Origin: an uncultured virus (IMG/VR IMGVR_UViG_3300044701_002219)
Taxonomy: Duplodnaviria > Heunggongvirae > Uroviricota > Caudoviricetes
Reading direction: 5' to 3' (one strand)
DNA length: 64,000 bases
Virus record (IMG/VR): IMGVR_UViG_3300044701_002219
In this document: piece after piece, positions 1,562-64,000 of the stretch
Position numbering within the stretch: the stretch's first letter is position 1
Layout: the number at the start of each line of letters is the position of its first letter
Made by a program: the position numbers and the translations under genes
Notes under the pieces: model-generated
Database searches by the model: none
What the model was told of the DNA's origin: nothing
The model's input: the letters and a program-made list of their open reading frames with translations, nothing else

Positions 1562-1795
1562 ATGGCAAAAACAGTATTAAAATGTAAAGGTAATGAGCTT
1601 TATTCTTATAACAGTGACTGGTTTCCTAAGGTAAATATAGGTGAGACCTTACAGTTTGAAGAAGCTTATCCAGAAACCACGGTACAAAGAGGCTTGTATA
1701 TAATAGAAAGTATAAGACATGTTTTTACTAAAAACTCTAAAGGTATGCATGGATCTACAGATATTACCACAATAATAGAATTAAGAACATGGTAG
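1562..1795 (+). CDS. Small hypothetical protein
   Basis: 77-aa ORF overlapping the start of the radical SAM gene. Confidence 0.6.
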   Translation: MAKTVLKCKGNELYSYNSDWFPKVNIGETLQFEEAYPETTVQRGLYIIESIRHVFTKNSKGMHGSTDITTIIELRTW

Positions 1796-12298: not shown

Positions 12299-12717
12299 TA
12301 TCAGAAGATATTAATTATAATAACCTGCTAAACATGCTTAACTCTTCAGACAGAGAGAATGCTGTAGTAGCACTTACCTGCATAGAGAACATAGACTTTA
12401 AACTGTTTATGCTTAAGATAATGCTTTTATATAAAGAATCAAAAGTCGAGCTAGGTATGTGGAAAGAACATGCTCCCAAGGCTCATGCTAAATTGATGAA
12501 GGCTATCTATTCAACTAAACATGCGCAGACACAACCTCATGACTATGTAACATTTGATGAAATAGTAAGAGCTTGTGCTAAAGAAACTATCTCAGAAGAA
12601 GATACTCAGTTATTAGTATCTGTTATATGCAAGAAGATGCAAGATTCTTTTGAGGCATACGGTTTATCTTGTATAGAAAGCTTAGATGTAAAAATAAACT
12701 TTAAACCAAATGATTAA
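12265..12717 (+). CDS. Hypothetical helical protein
   Basis: 150-aa ORF; shares the MxxSxDxxNxxxA motif with 15443..16549. Confidence 0.7.
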   Translation: MDDQSTKTGGLVSEDINYNNLLNMLNSSDRENAVVALTCIENIDFKLFMLKIMLLYKESKVELGMWKEHAPKAHAKLMKAIYSTKHAQTQPHDYVTFDEIVRACAKETISEEDTQLLVSVICKKMQDSFEAYGLSCIESLDVKINFKPND

Positions 12718-13927: not shown

Positions 13928-13928
13928 A

Positions 13929-46568: not shown

Positions 46569-49500
46569 AAAGTTGATTAGGATCTTTTATACCTTTTTCT
46601 TGACTAAGGGCTTGTAAAGCATTAGTATTTATAGTAGCCATATAGTCAAAGTCGTTTTCAAAAGCTGTTTTAAAATCTTTAAGGATAAGATCTGGACCTT
46701 GGTAAGAAGTTGTCATATCGTAATATGTTTTACCGGTTTGCGGATCTATCTTAACTATACCCATATTTAAACGATAACCTAAGCCTTCTTTAGCTAGAGT
46801 TGCTGTACCTCCCATAGGATTTTCTATAGTAATAGATCCTTTTTGTTGCATAACAAAATCTAAGTCTGTAGTTTCAAACTTATCTATGATATTTTGAGGA
46901 ACAGCATCTTTTGGTAAAAATACTACTATACCCTCTTCATTATACTTTGTATCATTTTCAGGAATAGTTCTAGTTTTATTTTCAGTACTAGTATGCTGTT
47001 CTCCCCATGTCATTCCTGGAACAACTCTAAAGCCTATAAGGTTGGGATCATGAGCTGCTATACCGGTTATTTCAAAATTTCCAAGAGCTCGATCTTCTTT
47101 AGTAGGTATGCCATCTTTGTTGATAGGAGAACCCGTTGCCATAGTAGTTCTAAATAAATCTAATATTTTTTTAGCTGTAGCATTGCTAGATTCGGGAACC
47201 TCTACAAAATCACCATAAGTAACAACCGCTCTATCTCCAGCAATATCCATAGCTTTAGAAAACTCAAAGAAGTCTTTAGCCCCAATACTATTTAAGTTAG
47301 CCGCATCTATATCAGATGCTAAAGCCATGCCCTTCATACCAGTAGTTTTTCCTCCTTCTAGATTATTCCAAGAAGATGCGTTTTCTCTATAGTTATGTTT
47401 AAATAACTTAAAATCGCTTTCTATATTTTTAGCTACAAAAGCTAAAGCATTTTGATAAGAATCTCTTGAAAAATCTTTAACAGACATATCAGCATCTCTT
47501 TGAGGACGGCCTACAAGCTCACCAAAATGCTGCTTATTTTCATTAGCAAAGTTTTTTATAAAGTTTGCTATTCTAATAGCATTAGCTGTTATTGGAACTG
47601 CTCTTAAATAAGGATTTTTTGGATCATACGCAGTAGTAAAAGTAGTTATTCCTTTTCTTTTTAATAGATCTATAGATTGTCTTTCTTGAGGAGTTAGTAT
47701 AAGTTCTCCATCCTTAGTATTTGTACTAGAATCTAAATATTGTATAGCACCTACTATATCAGAGTATTTAGGCATAAAACCTTTATTACCCGCTTTATCT
47801 AAAAGCTGAGCCATAAGATTTTTTCTTAACTCTGGTTCTGAGATTTGTCCTTCAGCCAAGAAAGATCCAGAATCTCTTAATGGAGTCTGAACATTATCGT
47901 TTGTTTCTAGATCTCCTTTATAAGCTAAATTATCTACTTCAGCATTAAACTTTTCTTTTGTTATTAAAGCTTGTTTTTCATTGTGGGCCTCAATAGCTTC
48001 TTTTACCTGAAGCTTTTCTTTATAAACATTAGCAATATTGTTAGATGCCTGCTCTAATCCTTCAGTCCATTTCTTATATAAATTGTAAGAATATGATTTA
48101 GGATTAGTAATAGCTCTAGCAGCATCGTATCCGCCTTTTAGATTACCTGATTCGTTTAGAGCATCGTTAAACTTTTTAGCTTCATCTGTAGAACCTTGTA
48201 TAAGATTTTTAATATCTACGTATCCTTTTTTACTAGGATCTGTTACGTTTATACCAGCCCCTTTAGCTATATCATAAATAGCAGGAGCAATTTCTTCTGT
48301 TGATGCTTTTTCTCCTTTGTAAGCTATTTTCGCAGTATTAATTACTTCATTAATCATTTGCCTTTGGGTTTGATTAAGAGTATTAATAACCTCGTTATGT
48401 TTATTAATATTAGCTTCTTCTGCTACATTTTTAGTTTGACCAAAAAGCGCATTTTTAACTACATTTTTTGAAAGATCCCAAAGATTACCTGTTGCGGTAC
48501 CACCTTTAACTACTGGAGTATACCCTTCCTGGCCTATACGAGACTGAGCTTCTTTAGCTTGCTTCTTTTCAAACTCTTGCTCCATCTCTTTAATCTTAAC
48601 CTTAGACATATGATCTGTACCAGGTACATAAACATTCTGTTTAGTTACAGGATCATAAACTATATAACCTTCACGGTTTTTAGCAAGTCTTTCTGTAGAA
48701 GCTATTTGTTTATTTTGTAAGGCTACCTGATTAGCTTTATATTCTACCTCCATAGTATTAGCAGCATAGAGGCTGGCTGAGTTAAGAGCTTCTTGTTTTA
48801 ACATAGCTATAGCTACGTTGTTATCCATGTTATCAAGAACAAAGTCTATGTTGTCTCTATTTATACCTAAAGATTTTAGACCCTCAAAGTTCTTATCATA
48901 TATTTGTTTCTTCTGTTCGATTACCGGTTCTTCACCTTTCATATCTAACCAGGCATCTAACCAGCCAGAGCTTTCTAGGTATCCGTCTTCCTTAACAGTT
49001 TTATCTATGAGCTTGCTTTTAGCTTTTACTATATCTAGTTCTTTCTGTGTTTTGTTTTTATCTTTTTCAGCATCTTCTAAAGATTTAGCATAAAGACTAC
49101 TTACGTAAGCCATATTAGCTTCTTTCTCATCGTTGTTGTATTCTCCAAGATTTTGACCAACCCAATCCTTACGTTTTACATAAGCACTAGCTTTTAGGTA
49201 ATCCATTACTTTAGGATCTTGTCCATATTTAGAGATGTACCATTCTGCTAAGCTACCAACCATATCTGTACCATTAGTTGTAGTAACAATATAGTCTCCC
49301 TGAACCTTATCCATCTTAACTTTAAAGCCGGCATCTTTTGCTGCTTTAATAGCATCATCTGTAAAGTTCTGAGCCGCAACGTAACTAACATCCTTCATAT
49401 TCATAGTTTGCTCTCTGCTAGCATTAGCAAACTCTTGTCTTTTATAATCTAAATATTTATCTCCACCTTCCCACCAAGAACCTCCGCATTTTTTAGGATC

Positions 49501-49887
49501 TGTACAAAGCTTCAACATCTCTCCTCTACTCTTCTGATTCATCCAGTTCTTTGTATAAGCCATATCCTTTAGGATATACTTATCCTCATACAAACCTTTA
49601 AAAACATTCATAGCCTGATCTACATTCTGCTGCAAGGATAAATCCATACCAGCCATTTTGTTGATATCTTGTTCTATAGACTTAAAGAAATCTTCTCTTG
49701 CTGTAATATTATCTTGATGGGTAAGAGGCGAGTTTAACAAAGTACCATAGACACTACTAAGTTGTTTCTTATTAGCATCATATCTACTCTGTTTAGTTTG
49801 AAGAATATTACCTAAGAAATTAAAGTCTGGTTGAAACGGTTGTATCTGAGGAATGTATGTTGTTACGCCTTGTATGTATGTTGCCAT
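46555..49887 (-). CDS. Putative virion cargo/internal protein
   Basis: 1110 aa, helical, begins MATYIQGVTTYIPQIQPFQPD; crAss-like cargo gene position. Confidence 0.7.
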   Translation of the reverse strand: MATYIQGVTTYIPQIQPFQPDFNFLGNILQTKQSRYDANKKQLSSVYGTLLNSPLTHQDNITAREDFFKSIEQDINKMAGMDLSLQQNVDQAMNVFKGLYEDKYILKDMAYTKNWMNQKSRGEMLKLCTDPKKCGGSWWEGGDKYLDYKRQEFANASREQTMNMKDVSYVAAQNFTDDAIKAAKDAGFKVKMDKVQGDYIVTTTNGTDMVGSLAEWYISKYGQDPKVMDYLKASAYVKRKDWVGQNLGEYNNDEKEANMAYVSSLYAKSLEDAEKDKNKTQKELDIVKAKSKLIDKTVKEDGYLESSGWLDAWLDMKGEEPVIEQKKQIYDKNFEGLKSLGINRDNIDFVLDNMDNNVAIAMLKQEALNSASLYAANTMEVEYKANQVALQNKQIASTERLAKNREGYIVYDPVTKQNVYVPGTDHMSKVKIKEMEQEFEKKQAKEAQSRIGQEGYTPVVKGGTATGNLWDLSKNVVKNALFGQTKNVAEEANINKHNEVINTLNQTQRQMINEVINTAKIAYKGEKASTEEIAPAIYDIAKGAGINVTDPSKKGYVDIKNLIQGSTDEAKKFNDALNESGNLKGGYDAARAITNPKSYSYNLYKKWTEGLEQASNNIANVYKEKLQVKEAIEAHNEKQALITKEKFNAEVDNLAYKGDLETNDNVQTPLRDSGSFLAEGQISEPELRKNLMAQLLDKAGNKGFMPKYSDIVGAIQYLDSSTNTKDGELILTPQERQSIDLLKRKGITTFTTAYDPKNPYLRAVPITANAIRIANFIKNFANENKQHFGELVGRPQRDADMSVKDFSRDSYQNALAFVAKNIESDFKLFKHNYRENASSWNNLEGGKTTGMKGMALASDIDAANLNSIGAKDFFEFSKAMDIAGDRAVVTYGDFVEVPESSNATAKKILDLFRTTMATGSPINKDGIPTKEDRALGNFEITGIAAHDPNLIGFRVVPGMTWGEQHTSTENKTRTIPENDTKYNEEGIVVFLPKDAVPQNIIDKFETTDLDFVMQQKGSITIENPMGGTATLAKEGLGYRLNMGIVKIDPQTGKTYYDMTTSYQGPDLILKDFKTAFENDFDYMATINTNALQALSQEKGIKDPNQLFGKK

Positions 49888-49897
49888 TTTATTCTAA

Positions 49898-49944
49898 AAG
49901 TTTATACAAAAATATTATAAGTTTATTAAACCTCGTAAGTTTAT
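49898..49944. repeat. Three AAGTTTAT direct repeats in a short intergenic spacer
   Basis: Copies at 49898-49905, 49919-49926 and 49937-49944. Confidence 0.6.
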
Positions 49945-52484
49945 GAGATCATTCCTTGGGTATTTTGAATCATACCTTCTAGCTCTTGATTTTTAGATCT
50001 GCTACTAGATTTACCTTGGATCATATCCCAAATAACCTTATCATCAGTACCGGGTAACATCTCTTTATATGTTTTAAACTTTTCGATTACAGAATCTGTA
50101 CCATCGTAAGCATCCGGAACAATTGGTCCAGTAGCTCCTGTAAACACAATCTGACCTCCAGACTCTGGAGTAATCTGATAGTTCTCTGACAATAAGTTTG
50201 TGTTATAAGCATTAACTTTATTAGTAAGAGCTGTTGTATAAGCGTTTGTAAAATTCTGTAAAGCGGCGCGTCTATCGTTCTCTAACTGTTGATTAAACAT
50301 TGTTTGCTTATCGTATAAGTTTGTAGCTAAACCTGCTCTTTCTCTAGATGCTTGATTTAGTAAATTATTCTTTTGAGCTAAGTAGTTATTCATAATACCT
50401 ACATTAGTATTAGCATAGTTAGCTATCTCAGCAGAAGATTGTGCAGCAAGCTTTCCAAGAATATCACTAGCCTGAGAAGAAAGTTTCTTTCCTCCGGCAA
50501 ACGTACCTAGCTGACGACCTAAAGTATTAGCCATACTAGTAGTTGCTGCTATGGATTGACTAGGATCAACTAAAACAGCTTCGTTCATATATGTAGCAGG
50601 AGCTGCTTGCCAAGGAGGTGTGCCAGTTATAGTAGCCCAATCACCAAAAGCTTTTGATACTCCTAAAATATCTTGCGCAAAGAAAGGAGCTCTAGTACTT
50701 TTAGCAAAAGGAATAAGCTGTTGTTTTTTTCTTTTTTGTTGTTCTTCTATTTCCGTCTCAGCAAGAAGATCTTCTTTAGGAGTCATACCTGTAATACCAG
50801 CAACTTGTCCAGCTGTAGTATTTGTATAAAAATCATCCGCTCCAGAGATCTTACTTTTCTTACCACCTCTTCCGATATCTTCATCAGATACTCCAAGTTG
50901 CTCTACCTCAAATCCTTCTAGCTTAGTATTTATATCAGCATCTTTAATCTTACCTGCTTTCTTATCATTGATTAATCCTTCGTAACCAAGATATATTAAT
51001 TGCTGTAAAGCAGCTTTACCTCCAGATCCTGTTGCACTGATTGGTAATCCTACTTCTTTATAAATAGTATCTAGATTAGGATATTTTTTACCAGTCTCAG
51101 CATCGCAACCTCCTTTTCCTTTAATAAAGTTTCCTTTGTTATCATAACAGTTATAACCTTCTTTGCCTAAGATTTGAGCAACCTTAAGGTTACGCTCATT
51201 CATCTCTAAAAACTGGTCAACAATTTCCTCAGGCTTCATAGCATTAATCTTAGCTTCTGTTAAACCTTTTTTGTTTGCAGCTTTATCTTTAGATAGCTCT
51301 ATTACTTTTTGCTTAAGAGCTTCAGCAACTTTAGGATCGGATATTCTTTCTTTTAAATACTCTAATCTTCCTGCAACATCTTTTCCTTCTAGAACAGATT
51401 TTTCTCCTACTGTATAATACTTACCATCAGAAGCTTTAGTATAAACTTTATATTTACCATTAGCTTCTTTAAAGGCGGCATCTCTAGCAGCAGTATATTC
51501 TTCATCAGTTTTATATTGACTTCTGTCTATCACCTTAGCATTCTTTGGAAGCACTTGCTTCTTGACTTTAGTTTTAGTAGTAGTCTCAGAAGTAGTTGTC
51601 GGATCTCCCTGAAAGATATTCGGATTCATTGGTATATTATAATCTTGTCCAGGGTTGCCTATGCCTATTACATTACCATCTCTATCTAGTACTTCATATA
51701 CACCAGTAGTAGAATTAAATCTCATACCAGCAGGTCTAGCTGAACGGTTTCCAAATAAACCTTTTCTTGCTTTAGGTAAAGATCCTTTTACTTCTTTACC
51801 GTATCTAGCCATATTATCACCATCTGGTTGTTCCGGCTGTCCTTGAGTTTGAGTATAACCTTGGATAGGATCCATGTTAATAGACTCTATATAAGGCATA
51901 GCTATTTTAGGAACACCCTGTGGGAAACCTTTTAATGACTCTTGTGCTAAAGATAATTTACCTAACTTTAGATTGTAGTTAGCAATCATCATTTCCGCAG
52001 TCTTCCTTTGTAGATCATCGCTATCCGGATCAGCTAACACTTCACGGAATTTATTGATATCGTATTGTTTAGCCAAATCAGCCGGCGTGTATCCAGATCT
52101 TCTATATGTTTTATTAAACATCTTTAGAACATCCTCATCTTTAATCTTCATAGATCTATCTCTAGAAAAGATAAAAGAATCTTCCGGAAGATTTAAAGGA
52201 GTGCCTCCTTCGTAGTGTCTCTTCCCACCTATTCTATAGTGTTCAGTAATACCGTCTTGGTTAAGATCTGTAACAACGGTTTCTCCTTTTTCTGCTTCTA
52301 GATTAGCTCCTTCCCAAGAAGAAGGTAATATAGTAGATCTTGTTTTTATATCTTTTGCAGAAAACTCACCAGCCATTACAGGCCAAGAAAGCTGGTTAGC
52401 ATTAAAGCCCATACCAGCATTCATCTTAATCTCAAAGCCTGACTGAGCTTTGGGCATAGAGGTTATTCTAACTTTTCTTTTCAT
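49941..52484 (-). CDS. Putative virion cargo protein
   Basis: 847 aa. ANLEAEKGETV...GKRHYEGG...FIFS domain typical of crAss-like cargo proteins; Gln/Asn/Ala-rich helical C-terminus. Confidence 0.7.
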   Translation of the reverse strand: MKRKVRITSMPKAQSGFEIKMNAGMGFNANQLSWPVMAGEFSAKDIKTRSTILPSSWEGANLEAEKGETVVTDLNQDGITEHYRIGGKRHYEGGTPLNLPEDSFIFSRDRSMKIKDEDVLKMFNKTYRRSGYTPADLAKQYDINKFREVLADPDSDDLQRKTAEMMIANYNLKLGKLSLAQESLKGFPQGVPKIAMPYIESINMDPIQGYTQTQGQPEQPDGDNMARYGKEVKGSLPKARKGLFGNRSARPAGMRFNSTTGVYEVLDRDGNVIGIGNPGQDYNIPMNPNIFQGDPTTTSETTTKTKVKKQVLPKNAKVIDRSQYKTDEEYTAARDAAFKEANGKYKVYTKASDGKYYTVGEKSVLEGKDVAGRLEYLKERISDPKVAEALKQKVIELSKDKAANKKGLTEAKINAMKPEEIVDQFLEMNERNLKVAQILGKEGYNCYDNKGNFIKGKGGCDAETGKKYPNLDTIYKEVGLPISATGSGGKAALQQLIYLGYEGLINDKKAGKIKDADINTKLEGFEVEQLGVSDEDIGRGGKKSKISGADDFYTNTTAGQVAGITGMTPKEDLLAETEIEEQQKRKKQQLIPFAKSTRAPFFAQDILGVSKAFGDWATITGTPPWQAAPATYMNEAVLVDPSQSIAATTSMANTLGRQLGTFAGGKKLSSQASDILGKLAAQSSAEIANYANTNVGIMNNYLAQKNNLLNQASRERAGLATNLYDKQTMFNQQLENDRRAALQNFTNAYTTALTNKVNAYNTNLLSENYQITPESGGQIVFTGATGPIVPDAYDGTDSVIEKFKTYKEMLPGTDDKVIWDMIQGKSSSRSKNQELEGMIQNTQGMIS

Positions 52485-52485
52485 A

Positions 52486-54861
52486 TTAATCTATATATTC
52501 GATAGTACCACCCATAGCCATAAACTGATCTATGTCGTCTTCTGTCATTTCGTAAACTCCACCTAAGTTATACATACCTCCACCGTATTTAGCACCGTAG
52601 GTTGTAACATTCATATCTCTAGGAGATGCTGGTCCAGATCCCCATGGAGTAGTTGTTAAACCTTTAGTAGGATCGCCAGGTAATACTTGATTATATGGAT
52701 CAAAAGTATTATAACCTTTACTCATAGAAGACGCCATATTCCAATTCATAGGATCTTTCTTACCCTCCATCCAGTCTTCATAAGCAGCTCTTTGACTAAA
52801 GTTAGAACCTAAGAATCTGTTACCAAAAGCTGTAGCAGCATTCATATAGTTCATAGCACGATAAGGATCTATACCCATCTTACCTTTAGTATCAATATCC
52901 CATTGCTCACCTCCATCATCATACATAGGTGCTACATCGTCAGAGTAATCTGTATCTCCACCTAAAGCTTTAGTATTACCAAACATTCCTGCAGGACCTG
53001 TATATCCAAAAGGTCTTGTTGAAATATTACCAAATGGTGTAGATAGCATAGCTGGAATATTTTTATTTTGTGGAGCAGGTGGAGTCTGAATAAAATCTGA
53101 TATACCATCGTTATTAGCATCTAACATTGGCCCAGACATAAAACTAGGAGCTTGCTTTGCTGCAGCTGGAGGAGTATATGGTTGAATAAAATCAGATATC
53201 TGATCCATATTCCTATCTAACATTGGTCCTGCTGTAGAAGTAGATGATCCTATGGAACGATCTCCTGCAGATCCTGCTCCAGGTTTTCCTTGATTATAAG
53301 CTTGTAACAACTGAGATGTAGATGGAATGTTTATATCTCCCATAGGAGTATTTACAGTAGTTGGGAAACCAGGTTTATCGCCATCTTTCTTTTCAACTGG
53401 TACTGTTTGTCCAGAAGGAAGTGTTCTTAGTTCCATGTGAGTCTTAACTCTCTTAGGTCCAAGTTTAGGAAACAACCATCTATTTTTTACCTCTTGATTA
53501 AACTTAAGCTCTAAACCTTGATCTCTGTATTTCTTAATAAGTTCTGCTTTTTGTTCTGGACTAAGTTCTCTGTTAAACATGTTAGGATCAAATCCTGAAG
53601 GTACTCCTTCAGAGAACACTTTTCCTCTATCATTTCCGCCAGGACCAGTATGTCTAAACTTACTTACGTAATAAGGATTAAAAAAAGGATTATTATTGGG
53701 AACAAAATAATTAAGATTAGGATAGCTGCCATAAGGATAGCCAGTATTTTGACCATAGTTTTGCGCAATGTTTCCATAGTACTGTTCTAACATCTGTTGT
53801 CTCTGAGCGTTCCTTTGTTTCTCATACTCTCCCATCATAGTGTTAAAAGTATTTTGATCAAAAGGATTTGAAGCAGGTGCTTGGTTAGCATTTTTTGTAG
53901 GAGTAGAAAACTTAGGCATCATTACGGTACCCATCGGAGTGTTCAAAGGATTTGCTTCTACAACACCTTGGATCTGATGCTTAGGTAGACTACCACCTTT
54001 TTTACCAAAATATTTCTTGTAAGTATTTACAGCTTTTCCTAAAAGCTCCTGACCGACCGGTCTCATCATGCTCATATCTCTCTGATCCATCTCATCAATC
54101 TGATTCTGCATCTGATTCATCTGTAGACCATATGGGTTTTGCATTCCACCATAGGCAGCCATAGGCATTCCCATCTCAGGTGATTGCATAACCTGATTAG
54201 CATAATCCTGTGCTTCGTTTACATCTTGAATAAGTTGGTTCTGAGCTTCTTCTTGGATAGCAGATTGAGTCTGGTTAGTTAGAAACTCCTGGAAACGATT
54301 TTTATAATCACTTATATAGTTAGATGTATCATATCCTTGAGGAGCGCTTCCGCCGTTATTATATTTTGCTTTTCCTTTTGTAGGAAGTAGTACATCGTTA
54401 AGAGCAGACATAGCCAAGTCTCCGCCAATGTTATACATAGCTAGATTCTCAGATGGATCTTGCATAGTCATTCCACCGTATTGAGGCATAGGAAAAGAAC
54501 CGTAACCAAAAGCACTACCACCAACATCGTATTTCATACCGCCGCAGTTATAACAAGGTTGACCGCCTTTAGCAAAAGAAGGTTCGAAAGGATACCCAGA
54601 AAAGAACATATTTTCAGGAGGTTGTTGAGGAAACGCTATCCCTCCTTCTGCATAATAAGCTCTTTGAGTAGTAGGTATATGACCTCTAGAAAAAAAAGTA
54701 TTTTCATCTGGTTGCTGAGGAAAAGCTGTTCCATCAGTAGATCCACCTATACCAAACTTCTTTTTAAAAGAGGCTTCTGTAGGATATTCTTTATAGAAAG
54801 CTTCTATACCTTCTTTAGTATTAGAAAAACCTCCCATTTTTAACATTTGTGCGGCTGTCAT
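52486..54861 (-). CDS. Low-complexity cargo protein with about 16 xxxGG motifs
   Basis: 791 aa, rich in G/M/P/Q; repeated YAEGG, FAKGG, YDVGG, YNIGG, YNNGG, YDDGG, YNLGG and similar. Confidence 0.75.
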   Translation of the reverse strand: MTAAQMLKMGGFSNTKEGIEAFYKEYPTEASFKKKFGIGGSTDGTAFPQQPDENTFFSRGHIPTTQRAYYAEGGIAFPQQPPENMFFSGYPFEPSFAKGGQPCYNCGGMKYDVGGSAFGYGSFPMPQYGGMTMQDPSENLAMYNIGGDLAMSALNDVLLPTKGKAKYNNGGSAPQGYDTSNYISDYKNRFQEFLTNQTQSAIQEEAQNQLIQDVNEAQDYANQVMQSPEMGMPMAAYGGMQNPYGLQMNQMQNQIDEMDQRDMSMMRPVGQELLGKAVNTYKKYFGKKGGSLPKHQIQGVVEANPLNTPMGTVMMPKFSTPTKNANQAPASNPFDQNTFNTMMGEYEKQRNAQRQQMLEQYYGNIAQNYGQNTGYPYGSYPNLNYFVPNNNPFFNPYYVSKFRHTGPGGNDRGKVFSEGVPSGFDPNMFNRELSPEQKAELIKKYRDQGLELKFNQEVKNRWLFPKLGPKRVKTHMELRTLPSGQTVPVEKKDGDKPGFPTTVNTPMGDINIPSTSQLLQAYNQGKPGAGSAGDRSIGSSTSTAGPMLDRNMDQISDFIQPYTPPAAAKQAPSFMSGPMLDANNDGISDFIQTPPAPQNKNIPAMLSTPFGNISTRPFGYTGPAGMFGNTKALGGDTDYSDDVAPMYDDGGEQWDIDTKGKMGIDPYRAMNYMNAATAFGNRFLGSNFSQRAAYEDWMEGKKDPMNWNMASSMSKGYNTFDPYNQVLPGDPTKGLTTTPWGSGPASPRDMNVTTYGAKYGGGMYNLGGVYEMTEDDIDQFMAMGGTIEYID

Positions 54862-54896
54862 GTTTGTAGTTGTTTACGCTGTTAATATACGAAAAA

Positions 54897-57800
54897 TTAT
54901 TGATATTTGTTTAGCCAGTTAGGCTGACCACCCTTTTTATATTCTCCTGGCCAACCTGTATTGTAGTTTTCAAAAAGTTTTTTAGCATATTCAAGATAAG
55001 AATCTTTTTCTTGAGGTGTCATATTACTATAAGACTTACCGTAAAAAGGATACGATTTATCTGCTTCTAATATTTTTTCTCCTCTTTTACCAATTAAAGC
55101 ACGATTAGTTTTTTTCCATTGAATAGCTTCTTTGGGTAAAAAATCGAAACGTGTTTTTCCTGGATTTTCTTTTAACCAGTTCTTTAAAGTTTCTTCGTAA
55201 TAAGGTTTATTTTTATAATATTGCTTGTACCAATCTTCATAGCTACCTTGGGTGTAATCGTGTTTAGGAGCAAACCTAAATTCAAAAGGACCGTATTCTG
55301 CAAACGGATCTGGAGCTTGCGCTTGAAATAAAAAATCGTAATAAGGACTGGATGATTGACCTGTGGCTCTATATCCATAATCTTGCATAGGAACATGAGT
55401 AGCTTGGTACTCTGCTATAGAAAAAGGATCGTTACGGTCTACTCCGGCTAAATCCATGTTTTCAAACTCTGATCTTGGTCTCCACCACGCTTTTTTACTC
55501 ATATCATAAGAATAGCCTGTATATGATTGTTTTCCTTTACCACCTGCTGGAAGTTCACCTTTTACTCTTCTATATGTAGTACCAAATTCATCAAGAGCTT
55601 TTTTAGTTAGAGTTTCTGTTTTAGCTGTAGAAAGTGCTGCGCGGTTTAAATCTTTAACACTAAGTTTTTCACCAATAAGGCCTTCCTTTTGCAAATCTTT
55701 TATAAACTGTCTTCTTCTTAAGAAGCCCATAAGATCTTTCTGTTTTTCCGGATCCATCTTTTGAAGGTTAGATGTTTCTGATCCAGGAAGATTAGAAGAA
55801 CTAGTATTAGGAATTTCTTTTAATTTAGTAAAAGGTTTTTTAGCTATGTTTTTTACTCCAGATTTTAACCCCGCTCTTATAGCTTGAGGAAGTTTTGTTA
55901 TTTCGGCACCGATTAAATTTGCAGGATCTAAGATGGCATCAACAGCAAAAGCTCCGTAAGGATTCTCAATGTTCATAGCTTCCGATGGAGTTTGCACTTT
56001 ATCGGTTAACCCATATACAGTACTAAGCTGAGGTGTAGTAAAAGGTATCATAGCTACATCATACAAAGCTTTTCCAAAACCTTGGCTAGGATCTTTATAC
56101 CAGTCTTTTCCTCCAGATGCTTCGGCTAATCTTTCTGTTAGCTGATCCGCAAAGCCTCTAGGTTTTACATCTGTAATATCAACCTCAGGTAAAGTAGTAG
56201 CAACGTAACTTGTGGGCTGTCCTTCTCTATTAAACTCTCTTGTTAGATTTCCTGATTTATAAAGCTCAGCATACTCTTTAGGAGTTACCTCCCTTACAGT
56301 ACCATCCGGCATTTTTACTTTAGCTTTTACCTCGCCTTTCTTTTGATAGTTATCTAACCATCCTCCGGTAGACATCTTAGCAGCTTCTGTATCAGGCTCA
56401 AACTGAGGTTCAAAACCCGCAGGAGGTGCTGCTGTACTACTAGGTATATTTTTGTTATAGATTCTTCTACCCATACTTGCTGGAGTATTCCAAGACTCTA
56501 CATAAACAGGCTCATACAATCTAGTCTCAGGATTAAACCTTTGCTTAACAAATCCTTGTGGTACTTTAATCTTAGCAGTAATATCAAGTTCTTGTTTAGT
56601 AGGCTCTGGCATAGACACCTGCCTCATCTCCATGTACTCAGGCTTTTCTTTTATTGGCTCATATACATTATGAATTACTGGTTTTTTAAAATGTCCAAAA
56701 TAAGCAGTATTACGATATCTTGGATCATATTCAGCAAGATAAGGAGCTAAACCAGTTTTTTCATCTTTCCAGTATTCTTTTTCTTGTTGTGTTAAAGGTC
56801 TTGTTTTAAGACCTGGTGTAAAAGTTTGATCATTTGTTTTTCTTACATATAAACTATCCATTTCAGCTTTATGAGCTTTGTCATATAAATCTTTATCAGT
56901 ATAAGTAACTACTCTAGGTGCTATACCAGCCTTTTGATATTTATCTAACCACCCGCCTTGCTTTTTGCTAGGCAGCTTTTTAGCAAACTCTAAAATGTTT
57001 TTTCTTTCTTGATCTGTAACCGTATTTTTGGAAGAAGACTTTTTCATAGGAAGTACTAGCCCAGATTTTGTTGCTTTTTCTTCTGCAAGTTTAGAAAGAG
57101 CTGTTTGTTCTTTTGGTTTTCCTTGTACCTCATAAACAGGAATCTCGCTATTTACATCCTTTACATAATCTATCTCATTATTTTTTAGATAAAAATCTAC
57201 GTACTCTCTAGTTAAAGCTTTTGACGGAGAGTTGTGCATTAGAGTAGTAAGCTCAACTAATTCTTGAGGTTCTAAATCCGGGTACTTTTTTTCTAGAAGA
57301 TGGTAGTTGTCTATAGCTAAATTAATAGAAGATAAAAACTGGTTCTCTAAATTATCAAATCCTGTTTTATGAAACCTTCCTCTTTTAGATAATTCTTTTT
57401 GCTGGAAAGCTCCTTTACTAGAAGGACTGTTATATTTTAAATATTCTCTGGCTTCTTTATCTAGTTTACGGTCTTTATATATTTCTTCTATAAAGTGTTC
57501 TTTGCTTCTGTATTTATTTTTTACATTGTTTGCGTTTCTAGACCAGTAATCTTCTATCCAGTTATCTTCTGCGTTTATACCTAGACTATCTGCAAGTTTT
57601 CTAGCTATAGATACCGCACCTTCAGGAACTAAAGATTTTGCCAAGGATCTTGGACCAGAAGAAGATTCTTTTTCTTTTATACCAAGCTGTTTTAAAAATA
57701 ACTGATCTAAAACTTCTGGAGGAAGATTAGATGACTTACCTATCTTCTCATAGTTTTTATTATAATAATCATAAAGCTTAATATCATCTTGACGAAGATA

Positions 57801-59426
57801 AGGAGTAATAAAAGACTGACCAGACTGATCAGCGGCTTTATAACCGGTTAGTTTTATAGCAGGTTTTTTCTTCTCGTATAGTTTTGCATAAGGATTATCT
57901 CCCTTTAAGATTTTTAAGTCTTCTTCTTTTTCTCTTTCTTGTTCTTCTAGTTTATCAGGATCAAATCTACTAACAAACATTTTATCCATAGGAAGTGAAG
58001 CTGTGGCTTTTCCTTTTTGAGACCATTCTATTAAATCGGACTCTGGAAACTCATCAACATCTACAGTTTCTTCACCATGGTTATTAGCTATTGTATACCA
58101 GTTGTTACCATCCTCATCTTTTCTTTTACCTATGATAAGTGAAGTATGCTGAGGAACATACTCATTTTTATTTAGTGGAGTAACGCTACCATCAAACCTA
58201 CCTATAGTTTTAGCATTTTGTTTGGTTCTAGAAAATCTTAAGTAGTCTCCTACTTCAAAACCTTCAGAAATAGGGTCTGCTTGGTAGAAACCTTCTTTCT
58301 TCATGTTGTCATCAAACATCATGTTACCAAAGTATTCTTGACCAAACTTCTTAGCACCGGATTTTTCTACTATCTGACAAACACCATGTATACAGTTCAT
58401 CTCTTGACCTAAATCTGTAATAGTCTTACCTGGTACGTGAGGTGTTTTATAACCAACACTTTCTAGATAAGGAATAACATTCTTAGCTATACTTTCTCTA
58501 TACTCTTGTGCTTTAGATTTTTGAGACGGTGGTGGAGCTGAAGGACTTTCATTACCACCTCCTACATCAAATCTACTCAACCATCCTTTTGGCATCAACA
58601 ACTGAGGAGAATTGGAAACGGGAACTGTATACTCATTAGGCTCATTATGATAATCTTTAACAGCTTTACCTTTTGGTGTAGTTTCTCTCCAACGCTTATA
58701 ATCATTAAGCTTATTCTGTAGCTGATTATAGTTATCCCAGTTCCACTGAGAAGGATTTCCTATTTTACTTTCTATATCTCTTATTTCTCTTTCCCATGCT
58801 TCAGGTGTTTCTGCCTCACCTCCAGGTTGATAACTATCTAACCATCCACCAGTAGCAAAAGGTTTGTAATACTGTCTACCACCAGGGCCATATAGAGTTT
58901 CGTTTCTTCTGTATAAAGCTTCGTTTATACTGCTCTTTATATTCTTGTTAGTGTATCTACCTTTTCTAAGACCTTTAGTAGGTCCTCCTTTTTTAGAGTA
59001 GTCTTCTTCTAGTTCTTCCTCTTCTTCCTCATACTCACCGAATAAATTAGTCCCAGCTTTTTGAGCAAACTTTTGTCTTTGAGAATCTGTAAGTGGATAG
59101 CCTTTTATACTACCTGATTGTAATACTTCTATAATAGTAGGTATACTAAGATTAATAGGACCACCTTTAGCAAACTTCTCATACTTCATAGCAGCTCCTT
59201 TAGGTATAGCCATCTCTAATACTGCAGAATAATCAGGGAAGTAATAGTTTTCTCCAGTCTTTCCTAAAATAGGACTACCAACTTTATTAGGACCAATAGG
59301 AAACATTAATACATCTTTTCCGGTAACTCCTTCCATAGTTATCCGGTTATCAGGTATTAGATTAGTAGGATTAAATCTATCCGGAGAATTATCTAAGTAT
59401 CCTGTAGTAGAGACTTTTGTTTTCAT
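54897..59426 (-). CDS. Modular cargo polyprotein with GGWLDxYQ linkers; CHAP-like and lysozyme-like module
   Basis: 1509 aa. Repeats GGWLDSYQ, GWLSRFD, GGWLDKYQ, GGWLDNYQ and terminal WLNKYQ; NC...GD...HT and E-S...GAFQ...HN motifs. Confidence 0.75.
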   Translation of the reverse strand: MKTKVSTTGYLDNSPDRFNPTNLIPDNRITMEGVTGKDVLMFPIGPNKVGSPILGKTGENYYFPDYSAVLEMAIPKGAAMKYEKFAKGGPINLSIPTIIEVLQSGSIKGYPLTDSQRQKFAQKAGTNLFGEYEEEEEELEEDYSKKGGPTKGLRKGRYTNKNIKSSINEALYRRNETLYGPGGRQYYKPFATGGWLDSYQPGGEAETPEAWEREIRDIESKIGNPSQWNWDNYNQLQNKLNDYKRWRETTPKGKAVKDYHNEPNEYTVPVSNSPQLLMPKGWLSRFDVGGGNESPSAPPPSQKSKAQEYRESIAKNVIPYLESVGYKTPHVPGKTITDLGQEMNCIHGVCQIVEKSGAKKFGQEYFGNMMFDDNMKKEGFYQADPISEGFEVGDYLRFSRTKQNAKTIGRFDGSVTPLNKNEYVPQHTSLIIGKRKDEDGNNWYTIANNHGEETVDVDEFPESDLIEWSQKGKATASLPMDKMFVSRFDPDKLEEQEREKEEDLKILKGDNPYAKLYEKKKPAIKLTGYKAADQSGQSFITPYLRQDDIKLYDYYNKNYEKIGKSSNLPPEVLDQLFLKQLGIKEKESSSGPRSLAKSLVPEGAVSIARKLADSLGINAEDNWIEDYWSRNANNVKNKYRSKEHFIEEIYKDRKLDKEAREYLKYNSPSSKGAFQQKELSKRGRFHKTGFDNLENQFLSSINLAIDNYHLLEKKYPDLEPQELVELTTLMHNSPSKALTREYVDFYLKNNEIDYVKDVNSEIPVYEVQGKPKEQTALSKLAEEKATKSGLVLPMKKSSSKNTVTDQERKNILEFAKKLPSKKQGGWLDKYQKAGIAPRVVTYTDKDLYDKAHKAEMDSLYVRKTNDQTFTPGLKTRPLTQQEKEYWKDEKTGLAPYLAEYDPRYRNTAYFGHFKKPVIHNVYEPIKEKPEYMEMRQVSMPEPTKQELDITAKIKVPQGFVKQRFNPETRLYEPVYVESWNTPASMGRRIYNKNIPSSTAAPPAGFEPQFEPDTEAAKMSTGGWLDNYQKKGEVKAKVKMPDGTVREVTPKEYAELYKSGNLTREFNREGQPTSYVATTLPEVDITDVKPRGFADQLTERLAEASGGKDWYKDPSQGFGKALYDVAMIPFTTPQLSTVYGLTDKVQTPSEAMNIENPYGAFAVDAILDPANLIGAEITKLPQAIRAGLKSGVKNIAKKPFTKLKEIPNTSSSNLPGSETSNLQKMDPEKQKDLMGFLRRRQFIKDLQKEGLIGEKLSVKDLNRAALSTAKTETLTKKALDEFGTTYRRVKGELPAGGKGKQSYTGYSYDMSKKAWWRPRSEFENMDLAGVDRNDPFSIAEYQATHVPMQDYGYRATGQSSSPYYDFLFQAQAPDPFAEYGPFEFRFAPKHDYTQGSYEDWYKQYYKNKPYYEETLKNWLKENPGKTRFDFLPKEAIQWKKTNRALIGKRGEKILEADKSYPFYGKSYSNMTPQEKDSYLEYAKKLFENYNTGWPGEYKKGGQPNWLNKYQ

Positions 59427-62400
59427 TATCTAGGCGAATAAAGATTTTTATTAGTTGCTAGCATTACTAGCATTTTTCTATCCCCACTAACTAACCTGCG
59501 CAAAAATACAAAATTTACATAATGGCGAAACTTCTTTCTTTCTAACTGATCTTTCTGATAGTTAAGATTGTTAGGATTAAGTGTTCTAACATATCCATTA
59601 GGAGATGTGTTCCATATCATTCTTTGAGCATATGTACCTGCGATTGGAGGAGGCGGAGGATAAGTCAAACCTATAGGGAATTCTCCTCTGCTATCTGTGA
59701 TATCCCAGAACTGGTTGAATCTATATTTCTGTTCTTCTTTAGAATAGAGTATAGAAATATTAGTAGGATTTATCTGTGGATAGTTAAGAATTACCGGCGC
59801 GTTATTCTTAGGATTAAGATTAAGCTTTAGTAATCCTGAACACTGCTCCGTGTTATATACTACAGCTTCATCAAAGTTATAGTCTAGAACATGGAAACGA
59901 TCGTAGCAATTATCTGCATATTTATATACTTCCATCACATACTCTACAGACCTTAAAGAGTTTACTTGGTTCGCAGTATGAACCATCCACTCTACTTCAA
60001 ACGGGTAATCTATTCCATAATAGTTACAATATAAATCGCATCTATCATTATGTACCCAGATGCCATTATTTAAAGCGGGATTTGTATTTGTGTTCTTAAT
60101 AGTTAAGAAAGTATTTTTACCCGGCAACATCAGATCCGGATGCCAGTCGTGCCAGCTAATCCATGATGCTGTTTTAGGATCATAACTTACTGTCCAAGAT
60201 GCGTCATCAAAAAACATAGGATCTCCTAGTTTTATAGGAAGCGTATCGTTTACAAGGAAGTTATCTCTATCTACATATGTAAGAACCGTATTAGGAGGAA
60301 GAGTACTTTTTACAACGTAATCCTTCTTTGAGAAATATAATAACTGATTAGTGTTATCATAAGTACTCTGGCAGCCGATACCTATTACTGGATTATCCAA
60401 AAGCTCAAAGTTTTCTATATTATTAATACCCTGTTTAAGTAATCGATAAGGTAAGTAATTCGCAAACCACCACTTTAAATCTTGGCCGCTAAGATCTTTT
60501 AAGCCTCCTGCAATACTGAAAATTTTACCTTGGTTTTGACTCATCCAATAAATACCCATAGGGGTATTAATTACGGATAATCTGTTTTGACAAGACGCAT
60601 ATTCATATGGTCTATCAGCATTCATCAAAGACTGCATAGGTTGTGAAAACAAACCTCCATCACCAATAGTAAGCTTGGTGCCGGCAGTAGTTTGCAACTC
60701 ATCTACACCTAAAAACTGAGTAGGACTATCAGATTCAAAAAGTATTAAAGCACCATTTCTGTTAATAGGTTTTATACAGGTTACCCTAGATAAAAACTCA
60801 TAATAGTTATTAGCTAAGAAAAAGTACCAGTTATCTTTACCTGATTCAAAATCTGTCGGTAAAGAATATATAACCTGATTAGGTTTGTAAACATAGCAAC
60901 TAGAAGCTAATCCTGGATCATAAGTTCTTGGTTGCATCTTTGCCCAAGAAGTATAATTAAGATACGTCTTAGATATACCTAAGCTAGGATCATATCTATA
61001 GAAGTTTCCGTCTTTTATAAGAGCCGTGTTAAACAGTTCTTTAACTCCAAGAATTGGATAGTGTTTTTGATTATCAAAATCTCCATAGTCTCTAAGATCT
61101 ACGTTTATCTCTGATTCTACAAAGAAGTACTTTACTCCAGAATTAAATAAATAGAAGTAACAGTTTCTAACTGCAAAACTTAAAGAATTAAGAAGACCTG
61201 TAATACCAGAGTTGTTATAACCATCTAAACAGAATCTTTCTGTAGGTAAAAAGTTATCTAACTGAGATAGTACTGTGTTTACAGGGTTACCTGAAAAAAC
61301 AGAAGAAAGACCTGTAAACATTCCTGTTATAGCATCGCTTAACTCAAAAGGCTGACTGCTCATCCAGAACCTTGGATAAGGTAACATTCTATTTTCTAGA
61401 TAGTCAAAACCAAATCCATCCGGTTGATCATACAACCACTCATAGAAATAAAAGAAAGTATCTTTTTCTGCAAAGCGTCCTACATAAGTATCTCCGCTAA
61501 ACATACTATCTGTTTTTCCTGGACCAAATCTATTTATGTTATGGTAACACTGACCTACTGGTACTTGGATAATACCATCTACTTGACCATACTGATTACG
61601 AAGACGTTGTTTATAAGCAACATAATAGTTTGCAGCAGTAGTTTCAAATTCTTTAGCAGTAGGTCTTCTTACAACAGGAGGCGCTGTAGGATCCCAATCA
61701 AGTTGAGCAAGATTTGCTACAGGAGATGTTGCGAGTTGCCTAGTGTTATCTACAAATGTTATAGGATCTCCTAATGCAGAATCTAGCTCTAAGACTACTT
61801 TATTAGATCTGTATAAGTTATTTATAGTATAGTTACTACCAAAATTAAGTACGTTGTTAGATAAGTAACTTTGTTCTGTAATAGTTCTTCTTCTTTCGTT
61901 AGATCTAGAAGGTGCTGAAAAAGTATACTTTCCAACAGAGTTATATTTTAAAGCATAATCTCTAAAACGTATAAAAGCTTTTATAAGATTAAGAGTTGTA
62001 TCAGCTCCTTGAGACCAGAAGTTTAAGAAAGTAGGGATACCTTGAGCTTGTCTAAGTAATAAAGGAATATCTGCATAGACACCACCTACAATATTTAGAT
62101 CTCTTATAAACTGACTATTAGTTGGAAAAGTAGCTGGTATAGCTGTAGCAAGAGATATCAATCCTAACAAAGGACCTAACCCATTTCCTAATACGTTATT
62201 TAAAATCTGACCACCACCTGGAAATGCTGCGGCAAGAGCTGCGGCTATCGATCCATTCATCACACTGACTGCAGCATCGCCACCAGCCCAAGTAGCCATG
62301 AATGCTGGTTCTAAGTAACCAAATAATCCAGAAGGCGCTGGTCCTAAGAAACCAGAACTTGTAACAGGATTTGCTGAAGGAAATTTATATGTCCATCTTC

Positions 62401-64000
62401 TTTCTCCATTTATAGATTGTGATGCTAAACCTATACCTACAATTACAGCTGTAAAGAATGCGGTATTAGAAATAAGTTTTGCTCTAGGATGTTTTTCAGA
62501 ATACTCAAACTTTCCTACAACAGTACTAGCCATTTCTTCTACAACCTTTAGTTCTTTACCGGATAAGAAAGGTTGGAAGAAGTTAGTATCTGGAGAATGA
62601 AAAGTAAATATGTCCCTTCTAAAAGTTCCCATAGGAGTATAGTTACCATTACCCGGCAACGGTACACCTAAGAAAGTATTAGGCTGATCTGTTTGTGTAG
62701 TAGATAAAAACGGATCTATTCTAAGATCATTATACGGATAGTTAGGATAAAGACCGGTTCTAGAGTTACCTTCTATTGTATACTCGGCCATGTTAGATAT
62801 AAGACCTTTAGCTAAAACAGTTCTATTACCTTGGCGAGATCCTCTAAGTATCTCATAACCAATTATTCCTGGGATAGGTTTACCATCATTATCTACAGGA
62901 GGTCTTACGTTTTCAAACTTTACACCCATTATTCTTATAGCAGGAGTATTTGCAAAGTTTGGAGAAGCTCCTATAAAGTGATTAGTCAAACTACTATTTC
63001 CAATAAAACAATCCGGAAACTTATGGTGACGAATCTTTTCCCCGCACAAATCATAATCATCAAGATTTGTTGTTACATACGGAATTGATGGCGTAAGCTG
63101 TCCTGGACAAGTAATAGGTGAAGGTGATAAAGTTGACCAACAATGTGCAGACGCATTCCATATCTCCGGCATTTTATCTGGATATTCTTCTGTGGATTCC
63201 CAGTATCCCATGTAACCTTCTGCTATTTGGAAACCACCATCTCCTGTCGGAATTATAGCATTAGAAGTAATACTAGCTGTATTTTCTACTTGCCACCTAA
63301 AGTTAAAACCTCCGGATACTTCAGAAATTAAAGCATCCGTAACTTGTAAAGCTGTTTCACCAGCAAATGCGGGTCTACCCGGAATATGATAGCTAGGAGT
63401 TTTATCGCCAGTGTCGTATATCCAACGGATAAAGAAAGCGTAAACCTCATCTCTCATGTAACCTACATTGCTTCCTCCATTTTTGTAGTAGTCTTCTGGA
63501 TACTCTGTAGAAATCCACTTTGTAACTATCTGATTAGCTAGAGGTTGATAATTAAAGTCTAACTTAGACGTAGGACCTACGCGAAGAAGATACGTGTTTA
63601 CATTATACATCGCATCAGACTTGTTATAAACTGTGGTCAGTATAGGTACGCTTTCTATAGGAATAGTGTCCCAAGTAGGGCTAATAATATCAAGATTGAT
63701 AATCTTTTGATTAGTAGAATAAACGCCAACGCGTCTAGCTACAGTCTGTAGATTTACAATAGAAACTAAAACTATTTCTATCTCGTCGTAATCTGGGTCT
63801 GTATTTTCTATAAATATGTTTAGAGAAGAAGCTATATTCTGATGCTCAAACAAGGGCTGAACATTAGAAGGAGTAAAGTAATCACTGATTTTCTCTCCAC
63901 CTATGCAGTAAGCAGCTACTATAAAGTAAGAACCGTTAGGAAGAGTCCCGCCGTTAGTTCCTTTTTCTACTCTATAACAAGCAGGCTGTATAAGTCTAGC
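59426..64000 (-). CDS. Large tail structural protein (crAss tail-stabilisation/muzzle-like), 5'-truncated
   Basis: Frame is open to the window edge (ARLIQP...GGTLPNGSYF... upstream of the track start). Motifs GYMRDEVY, IRHHKFP, GYEILRG, FTFHSPD, GDTYVGRF, WTVSYD...WISWHDW. Confidence 0.75.
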   Translation of the reverse strand, partial: ARLIQPACYRVEKGTNGGTLPNGSYFIVAAYCIGGEKISDYFTPSNVQPLFEHQNIASSLNIFIENTDPDYDEIEIVLVSIVNLQTVARRVGVYSTNQKIINLDIISPTWDTIPIESVPILTTVYNKSDAMYNVNTYLLRVGPTSKLDFNYQPLANQIVTKWISTEYPEDYYKNGGSNVGYMRDEVYAFFIRWIYDTGDKTPSYHIPGRPAFAGETALQVTDALISEVSGGFNFRWQVENTASITSNAIIPTGDGGFQIAEGYMGYWESTEEYPDKMPEIWNASAHCWSTLSPSPITCPGQLTPSIPYVTTNLDDYDLCGEKIRHHKFPDCFIGNSSLTNHFIGASPNFANTPAIRIMGVKFENVRPPVDNDGKPIPGIIGYEILRGSRQGNRTVLAKGLISNMAEYTIEGNSRTGLYPNYPYNDLRIDPFLSTTQTDQPNTFLGVPLPGNGNYTPMGTFRRDIFTFHSPDTNFFQPFLSGKELKVVEEMASTVVGKFEYSEKHPRAKLISNTAFFTAVIVGIGLASQSINGERRWTYKFPSANPVTSSGFLGPAPSGLFGYLEPAFMATWAGGDAAVSVMNGSIAAALAAAFPGGGQILNNVLGNGLGPLLGLISLATAIPATFPTNSQFIRDLNIVGGVYADIPLLLRQAQGIPTFLNFWSQGADTTLNLIKAFIRFRDYALKYNSVGKYTFSAPSRSNERRRTITEQSYLSNNVLNFGSNYTINNLYRSNKVVLELDSALGDPITFVDNTRQLATSPVANLAQLDWDPTAPPVVRRPTAKEFETTAANYYVAYKQRLRNQYGQVDGIIQVPVGQCYHNINRFGPGKTDSMFSGDTYVGRFAEKDTFFYFYEWLYDQPDGFGFDYLENRMLPYPRFWMSSQPFELSDAITGMFTGLSSVFSGNPVNTVLSQLDNFLPTERFCLDGYNNSGITGLLNSLSFAVRNCYFYLFNSGVKYFFVESEINVDLRDYGDFDNQKHYPILGVKELFNTALIKDGNFYRYDPSLGISKTYLNYTSWAKMQPRTYDPGLASSCYVYKPNQVIYSLPTDFESGKDNWYFFLANNYYEFLSRVTCIKPINRNGALILFESDSPTQFLGVDELQTTAGTKLTIGDGGLFSQPMQSLMNADRPYEYASCQNRLSVINTPMGIYWMSQNQGKIFSIAGGLKDLSGQDLKWWFANYLPYRLLKQGINNIENFELLDNPVIGIGCQSTYDNTNQLLYFSKKDYVVKSTLPPNTVLTYVDRDNFLVNDTLPIKLGDPMFFDDASWTVSYDPKTASWISWHDWHPDLMLPGKNTFLTIKNTNTNPALNNGIWVHNDRCDLYCNYYGIDYPFEVEWMVHTANQVNSLRSVEYVMEVYKYADNCYDRFHVLDYNFDEAVVYNTEQCSGLLKLNLNPKNNAPVILNYPQINPTNISILYSKEEQKYRFNQFWDITDSRGEFPIGLTYPPPPPIAGTYAQRMIWNTSPNGYVRTLNPNNLNYQKDQLERKKFRHYVNFVFLRRLVSGDRKMLVMLATNKNLYSPR

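Follow-up and report, generated by a model that had tools for sequence, protein, structure and literature searches.

A recurrent Gly-Gly motif in the C1 cargo block of crAss-like phages, a candidate signal for cutting or loading ejected proteins

The stretch under study (hereafter the window; 64,000 nucleotides of the uncultured virus record IMGVR_UViG_3300044701_002219) comes from a crAss-like phage. It encodes the crassvirus tail muzzle (PF25731/crAss_MUZ, Pfam E 4.9e-17), and its close relative G002 matches the Crass_capsid and Ring_1/2 profiles; the window's own capsid genes fall outside it, and the parent genome is incomplete. Three consecutive open reading frames (ORFs) beside the muzzle, of 1509, 791 and 847 amino acids (aa), are the subject here, together with a short motif ending in Gly-Gly that is repeated in the first two. 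The genes of the region are as follows, all on the minus strand:

59426..63853: tail muzzle protein, the upstream landmark; its frame is open to the window end and the true start lies beyond
54897..59426: modular cargo protein of 1509 aa, with which the likely C1 block opens
52486..54861: 791-aa cargo protein rich in G, P, Q, N and M, with ten [YFM]xxGG
49941..52484: 847-aa protein with a KRKVRI basic head, a degenerate PKAQSG, a conserved compact domain, a variable middle and a conserved C-terminal region
46555..49887: 1110-aa C2-like cargo protein, the downstream landmark, named from its position and from N-terminal likeness by eye to gp46 of phage crAss001
21660..46568: three giant cargo ORFs (1916, 3650 and 2731 aa) with four HExxH zincin-like motifs

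All ten [YFM]xxGG pentapeptides that a preliminary description of the window had listed for the 791-aa ORF are present, seven in aa 36-171 (54349-54756) and three in aa 647-785. Composition shuffles give 1.74 and none of 2000 reaches 10; with every Gly held fixed the expectation is 3.28, and one of 2000 shuffles reaches the count. The "about 16" xxxGG given for this protein was near the mark, the exact number being 18 GG positions, one run of which is GGG (10.1 expected, p=0.0055). In the 1509-aa ORF the eight listed pentapeptides are likewise all found, ending at aa 89, 183, 194, 203, 290, 825, 1022 and 1500. Seven are [YFM]xxGG (0.91 expected, 0/2000 composition shuffles; 1.48 with Gly fixed, 1/2000), and plain GG is not enriched in this ORF (12 vs. 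7.6, p=0.07). In both ORFs the motif is more frequent than in composition-matched shuffles. On the contrary, the "related PKAxxG motifs" of the 847-aa protein show no enrichment (1 vs. 0.68; with the refined pattern given below, 1 vs. 0.39, 303/1000 shuffles), although the protein carries degenerate copies, PKAQSG and MARYGK..PKARKG aligning with family positions that read as the motif. None of the five other large minus-strand ORFs is enriched for [YFM]xxGG. Among the 37 ORFs tested there is one further outlier, a 147-aa ORF on the plus strand (11514-11957, two [YFM]xxGG, p=0.0045), which belongs to DUF6878 and has four GG. The Gly codons of the motif vary, so the signal sits at the protein level and a DNA-level repeat is ruled out. 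As [YFM]xxGG was picked after inspection of the sequence, the independent test is that of the relatives.

The motif proved to be family-wide. In its refined form, [YFM]-[KQA]-x-G-G, it is enriched in 18 of 18 C1-block loci, and in each none of 400 shuffles reaches the observed count. The loci come from a set of 22 in IMG/VR, from which the duplicates L001, L010, L014 and L015 and the locus ending at the muzzle (L006) were dropped; the close pairs L019/L020 and L023/L024 were kept. With [YFM][AQKN]xGG, 161 copies are counted in 46 proteins of C1 blocks, among them the three of the window (44,237 aa; 3.64 per 1000 aa), against 6 in 76 neighboring proteins (67,577 aa; 0.09 per 1000 aa). Counting back from the GG, position -3 is Y, M or F in 46% and position -2 is K, Q or A in 55%, and there is little information after the GG. 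Information at and before the Gly-Gly with little behind it is the shape of a protease site. Both crAss001 and environmental phages retain the -3 and -2 residues, with no detectable similarity between the modules that flank the motif.

In crAss001, gp45 is the sole protein among 91 with more than one site (8 vs. 0.74 expected; GG at 209, 263, 332, 373, 391, 427, 562 and 828), and gp46, gp47, gp49 and gp50 have none. Copies are also visible in phi17:2, csAssE-Sib, Lbo-JY46, DAC15, Dulem 41 and phi14:2, with weak enrichment of the strict pattern in DAC15 (27/500 shuffles) and phi14:2 (49/500 and 80/500). The host label of locus L008 (Leptolyngbya phage Lbo-JY46) is unexpected for the group, given its crAss-like muzzle and C1 block. 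In four near-complete genomes (G002, G003, G004 and G006), at least two copies occur solely in C1-block genes and, for G002 and G003, in basic ORFs of 50-100 aa near the capsid gene. The latter are Lys-rich, end in [MFY]KKGG-x-x-K and are candidate internal head proteins:

L030 10777-10953, plus strand: Lys-rich motif ORF
L052 12419-12637, 13684-13986 and 16964-17116, minus strand: Lys-rich motif ORFs

The motif often comes in pairs, 35 of 214 intervals being 6-10 aa long against 8.9 at random, i.e., four times chance. Such tandem spacing favors a second explanation, in which the motif serves as a short binding strand present in several copies. For loading or tethering, it would dock on the portal, the scaffold, the compact domain or other cargo, and the chain would be ejected whole. 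Its presence in the basic ORFs beside the capsid gene of G002 and G003 points the same way. Against it, a single low-complexity protein holds up to ten copies, the residues that follow the GG are not conserved, and no partner was identified.

The motifs of the 1509-aa protein had been described as lying at boundaries between segments, and this is supported: 22 of its 36 internal BLAST segment ends fall within 15 aa of a motif, compared with 13.7% of positions, in a test that is partly circular because a conserved motif itself lengthens alignments. Across the relatives, modules shift and duplicate between motifs, and in DAC15 one module is duplicated between them. For instance, the following block of the 1509-aa protein is bounded by motifs and recurs as a unit:

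56925..58556, minus strand: module of about aa 290-834, a single block in 5 homologues

Within it, aa 335-445 have a CHAP/NlpC-P60-like look with Cys346 and His427 and may form a wall hydrolase; the region has no Pfam match, and its ESM Atlas scores of 0.92-0.93 to CHAP/NlpC clusters are a lead only, the top two rows being DUF1989. The segment aa 139-198 takes a C-terminal position in 3 homologues. In the relative L002 the counterparts of the 1509- and 791-aa proteins are fused in a single 2104-aa ORF. In 15 long fused homologues, chosen for a compact domain lying deep inside, with the 847-type part behind a 791-type part, motif-like GG/PxAxSG peptides stand immediately N-terminal of this domain. 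The window's 791-aa protein has BLAST matches in 5 of these 15, and by alignment the window's PKAQSG reads as the second half of the junction seen in them. The motif thus marks points of module exchange, gene fusion and gene split, and a repeated sequence code at module junctions is a feature of protease-processed polyproteins.

The same placement would be expected if the motifs did no more than join modules as flexible hinges or cap helices, and had spread as cassettes were duplicated and recombined, with neither a reader enzyme nor a receptor. The motifs at exchange points, the duplicated DAC15 module and the probably structural nature of some copies (MAMGG in the C-terminal tag of the 791-aa protein, and the GG pairs within the compact domain) speak for this. 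The conservation of -3 and -2 between phages with dissimilar flanking modules, the varying codons and the presence of the motif in unrelated small basic proteins speak against it, and we consider it unlikely as the general explanation.

The three ORFs are likely a split form of the crassvirus cargo protein C1, which is gp45 in crAss001 (PDB 7QOG, PF25725). The assignment draws on gene order, a weak fold match and one shared module; it is short of proof, since sequence profiles miss gp45 and the Glu- and His-bearing elements come in swapped order. In gene order, the muzzle, the three ORFs, the 1110-aa ORF and the three giant ORFs run as gp44-gp50 do in crAss001, so that the three ORFs occupy the slot of C1 between muzzle and C2, the 1110-aa ORF being read as C2 from its place and its N-terminal resemblance to gp46. 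In G002, the ORF that corresponds to the 3650-aa one matches crAss001 gp50 at 23%. The shared module is one of 56 aa, common to the 791-type protein of G002 and gp45 (59% identity, E 4e-14). The weak fold match concerns the following part:

51870..52352, minus strand: compact domain, aa 45-205 of the 847-aa protein, probable counterpart of the portal-bound C1 domain

This domain has 2017 homologues (1570 clusters at 50% identity), a predicted fold with a mean local confidence (pLDDT) of 93, and invariant E63, E65, E68, H90 and S107; GG pairs are also invariant inside the fold, a point in favor of a binding tag. Foldseek ranks C1 (7qog_M) first among PDB entries, weakly (E 0.65), and VIA ranks it second (Z 5.8, 89 aligned, root-mean-square deviation (rmsd) 3.8), tied with helical bundles. 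Among viral matches a structural protein of phi4:1 ranks first (E 8.5e-6), C1-labelled BFVD rows reach E 0.05-1, and an ESM comparison gives the PF25725 cluster 0.92 with 181 shared features. By sequence, no Pfam match to PF25725 was obtained and BLAST to gp45 gives E 0.09. The hidden Markov model of the compact-domain family misses gp45 and finds phi17:2 gp41 (5.9e-6) and csAssE-Sib (1.9e-9); a profile of the C-terminal region of the 847 family does not detect gp45 either. The compact domains of gp45 and of the window both have E-x-G-E, His and FS elements, and the two C1 forms carry the same motif, but C1 is one gene of 842 aa in crAss001 and three genes totaling 3147 aa in the window, with extra enzyme-like modules and gene-end tags. 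For the three ORFs no Pfam or PHROGs match passed the cut-off, nor did any in a PDB-sequence search of the 1509- and 847-aa ORFs; the nearest record, the 14-kb fragment G001, has no match to the 791-aa protein, and the 1110-aa ORF shows neither a Pfam match nor motif enrichment. The earlier proposal that these are genes of the virion-cargo type is supported; the phi14:2 relatives g069 and g070 are annotated as detected by mass spectrometry (MS).

The ends of the split genes carry paired tags:

54900..54917, minus strand: WLNKYQ, C-terminal tag of the 1509-aa protein, co-occurring with an LKxAG..FY..YP head in the next gene
52489..52572, minus strand: acidic C-terminal tag of the 791-aa protein, GG-x-Y-E-M-T-xx-E/D-I...A-x-GG-x-I-E-Y/F-x-D (alignment A2, 19 rows)

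Across 28 gene boundaries, all five WLxxY tails precede an LKxAG..FY..YP head (p=6e-5) and all 13 pattern-found acidic tails precede a basic head of KVRI type (p=8e-4), both p-values being overstated because the loci are kin. Six further KVRI-type heads follow no pattern-found tail, five of which show the tail in alignment A2. The last 23 residues of the 791-aa protein (aa 769-791) include 7 acidic and no basic ones, and the last GG of this tag may cap a helix instead of marking a place of cutting. Judging from this co-occurrence, the paired tags would dock and restore one chain after the gene split. A complex prediction for the 791-aa tail with the 847-aa head scored 0.25 against a mark of 0.32, with no folded controls alongside.

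The explanation to which we give an even chance is that the motif is a cut signal, the cargo being loaded as one tethered chain and then cut. C1 would be a chain of swappable modules split over three genes; the compact domain of the 847-aa piece would bind the portal and so anchor the chain in the procapsid for packaging, and the paired end tags would hold it together across the gene breaks. After loading or on ejection, a protease, most likely a zincin domain of the cargo zone or a host enzyme, would cut at or next to [YFM]-[KQA]-x-G-G, and channel parts, wall hydrolases and small basic peptides would result. A host enzyme has a precedent in P22 gp7, an ejected protein that the host enzyme OpdA cleaves one residue upstream of K-G-G (record note). 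The preliminary description had offered protease sites or capsid-loading tags; both readings still stand as proposals. The tag reading is a possible one, to be held more tentatively, and as some copies are probably structural, the two may both hold.

The virion of crAss001 bears on both. Bayfield et al. 2023 (PMC10172136) resolved gp45 at residues 214-245 (tail) and 425-552 (portal), about 420 A apart and on opposite sides of the portal, and read it as a single stretched chain; the words "cleav", "proteol", "protease" and "peptidase" do not occur in the main text. The tail segment lies wholly between the motifs ending at 210 and 264. The portal-bound segment opens at A425 of AFGG-WL and includes the GG at 427, 434 and 447. 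This ordered start suits a binding tag, as does the GG-WLxxY unit found five times in the 1509-aa protein (five WLxxY/F tags). The four gp45 MS regions named in the paper's text have no motif inside.

The matrix-assisted laser desorption/ionization (MALDI) peak lists of 13 virion gel bands (Shkoporov 2018, PMC6235969) were re-analyzed against 41 crAss001 proteins, with band sizes inferred from the listed weights. The bands read as gp44 (with gp34 and gp40) twice, gp47 with gp50, gp49 with gp44, gp20, gp26 with gp22, gp22 with gp25, gp25, gp23, an unassigned one, gp32, gp36 and gp29. The 91-kDa gp45, which has 12 portal-bound copies, was identified in none of the 13, those of 70-100 kDa included, which is a point against a chain that stays whole. 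Its best result is 5 matches vs. 1.5 decoys in band 7, three of them common to gp22/gp25, compared with 10 vs. 1.5 for the portal, which runs at full size, as do the gp47, gp49 and gp50 cargo; detectable peptides number 26 for gp45 and 38 for the portal. The missing gp45 fits loss of a precursor, weakly, as co-migrating tail proteins may mask it and only visible bands were excised. No products were seen; cuts at the main sites would give gp45 pieces of about 19, 6, 7.5, 10, 15 and 29 kDa.

Several observations weigh against cutting. The single-chain interpretation of Bayfield et al. is one, and the 425-552 model runs through three GG, so that those sites look intact on the portal, unless the cut lies before A425 or a nick was missed in the model. 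In the gel, the motif-free gp46 is not clearly seen either; two band-7 peaks that gp22 and gp25 leave unexplained fit gp45 and could be traces of the full-length protein. The 15-kDa band has no gp45 peptide and the 35-kDa band one; semi-specific gp45 peptides stay near decoy level (20 matches vs. 13.5), and GG-ended gp45 peptides show no excess over decoys in the MALDI lists. Peptides of the capsid protein span residues 8 to 493 of 504, so there is no large propeptide. Cutting at the close pairs would leave scraps of 7-9 aa, and a search of ORFs for a protease common to the motif-bearing phages gave none.

The latter search covered, with Pfam, 28 window ORFs, 47 of 160 in G002 and 131 picked from the 315 listed for G003, G004 and G006. 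Neither a Ulp1/adenain-like protease, for which the preliminary description had suggested a search, nor a prohead protease was found in the window or among the scanned ORFs of these four near-complete relatives, a result that also favors a binding tag. Packaged cargo zincins would be the best candidates, from their HExxH strings:

42855-42869, 38057-38071, 29439-29453 and 26961-26975, minus strand: HExxH motifs in the giant cargo ORFs, by motif match

The giant ORFs give no Pfam peptidase match above noise. HExxH occurs in the neighboring cargo of the window, in that of four of four relatives and in crAss001 gp47; it is absent from the window's three motif ORFs and present in one C1-block protein of G003. 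The 2731-aa ORF (21660-29855, minus strand) has two of the strings and a LysM match at aa 2396-2420. That zincins process cargo was proposed by Drobysheva 2020 (bioRxiv 10.1101/2020.03.07.982082), with no cut sites in the passages seen. A DUF2201 metallopeptidase-VWA protein (window 12710-13927, plus strand) has counterparts in G002, G003 and G004 and no BLAST match in G006 or crAss001, which weakens it as the cutter; its gene adjoins an AAA ATPase in the replication block (12710-15398, plus strand).

Other candidates were rejected. A Peptidase_C92-like ORF of G002 is a weak match with no BLAST match in the other genomes, and the CHAP-like module is present in some homologues only. The conserved post-capsid gene (338 aa; L030 9560-10576, plus strand; 3608 homologues; folded from 66 rows) has a C-terminal part that resembles the C-terminal domain of RecA (Z 9.6, 63 aligned, rmsd 2.0) and, in front of it, a helical part whose matches are SAP/CARD-like; from this model its product probably binds DNA. 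No protease fold is among the matches listed for it, its N-terminal half being barely covered, nor among the structure matches listed for the compact domain. In phiRIO-1, a phage with a related tail, no clear processing is described in the part of PMC4819975 seen.

Apart from these, the window has a radical SAM gene resembling spore photoproduct lyase (1789-2643, plus strand; Pfam SPL E 5e-25), which suggests repair of ultraviolet damage. G006 carries a cluster of glycosyltransferases, UDP-glucose dehydrogenase, epimerase and NAD synthase (L046 12598 to L047 7763) and a Gad1 anti-defence match (L044 4559-5215), and the crAss-like genome G004 has reverse transcriptase-like and histidyl-tRNA synthetase-like ORFs (L038 2838-3476 and L039 8795-9424).

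Gly-Gly ends are where JAB and E1 enzymes work, and crAss001 has a possible pair of this kind:

L056 17394-19792, minus strand: crAss001 gp76-gp77, a possible ubiquitin-like module

Here gp76 is a ThiF protein (E 8e-16) and its neighbor gp77 matches Prok-JAB weakly, below the cut-off (E 5e-4), and in a ubiquitin-like pathway the JAB protease would expose a C-terminal Gly-Gly and ThiF/E1 would conjugate the pieces. This is very improbable. None of five near-complete close relatives, all with an 847-type gene and with motif-rich C1 blocks seen among them, matches PF14464 or PF00899, with controls found in 11 and 14 of 14, so the pair is also rejected as the cutter; no JAB/E1 match exists among 28 window proteins, and the modules match no ubiquitin-like family.

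In the case of adenain, African swine fever virus pS273R and the SUMO/ubiquitin proteases, which are clan CE enzymes and deubiquitinases, specificity ends in Gly-Gly with a hydrophobic residue upstream. The preliminary comparison with adenain does not extend to the spacing. The hydrophobic residue is at -3 of the GG here but at -2 in (M/I/L)xGG, and [YFM]xGG is not enriched (1 vs. 1.65 in the 791-aa ORF, 0 vs. 0.88 in the 1509-aa ORF), with K, Q or A at -2; I and L at -2 were not tallied separately. T4 and phiKZ prohead cleavage codes end in Glu. A short repeated code, carried by proteins that are loaded into the head and later ejected, is common to the prohead-protease systems of SPN3US, phiKZ and T4 and, with its probable cargo, to the window; unlike in those systems, no prohead protease was found among the ORFs scanned, the crAss001 capsid and polymerase cargo are uncut, and the motif ends in Gly-Gly. 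The polyvalent proteins of Iyer et al. 2017 (PMC5512222) are large injected domain mosaics with proposed self-processing by HExxH zincins; there the zincin is in the same polypeptide, whereas the window's motif ORFs lack HExxH and the downstream cargo has four. The words "crAss" and "glycine" are absent from that paper, and its passages seen name no cut-site motif. The motif works like both the prohead codes and polyvalent processing and, as tested, has the defining features of neither. No account of the motif or of C1 cleavage was found in the literature covered (mostly without subscription papers) or in the part seen of a 2023 review (PMC10136315).

Outside the crassviruses, lambda gpH has FATGG (733-737) and YATGG (778-782), followed by HRGEFV, which resembles the EQGEVV element of C1. 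The protein loses about 14 kDa, site and catalyst being unknown (PMC12617516, seen in part); a cut after 737 would remove 12.2 kDa, not 14. The 2 copies against 0.2 expected are weak (12/500 shuffles), a profile match is absent (E 0.2), and P22 gp7 has no copy of the motif. The lambda regions are:

L058 1543-4104 and 5277-5876, plus strand: regions with the gpH and gpK leads

Lambda gpK has a weak Prok-JAB match and also one to NlpC/P60. A wider proposal, which we regard as doubtful, is that a maturation code ending in Gly-Gly is common to the ejected proteins of tailed phages and extends from crassvirus C1 as far as the lambda tape measure. Its reader would be a protease carried in the virion, either a zincin of the cargo or the C1 compact domain with its invariant Glu/Glu/His/Ser. 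C1 would then be a rack of cassettes, its modules loaded via one portal anchor, linked by docking tags and freed at infection.

Crassviruses are the most abundant phages of the human gut (PMC10172136), and in the current model C1 passes through the portal alongside the DNA as a single chain of 842 aa. If the motif is a binding tag, it would be a short signal for loading proteins into the capsid. If it is a cut code, separate C1 pieces would replace the single threaded chain; such a code would explain how injected enzymes are gained and swapped, and would point to a protease new to the group. The motif is also a candidate, as a lead only, for the unmapped cut of lambda gpH, and it predicts exact sites in the cultured phage crAss001.

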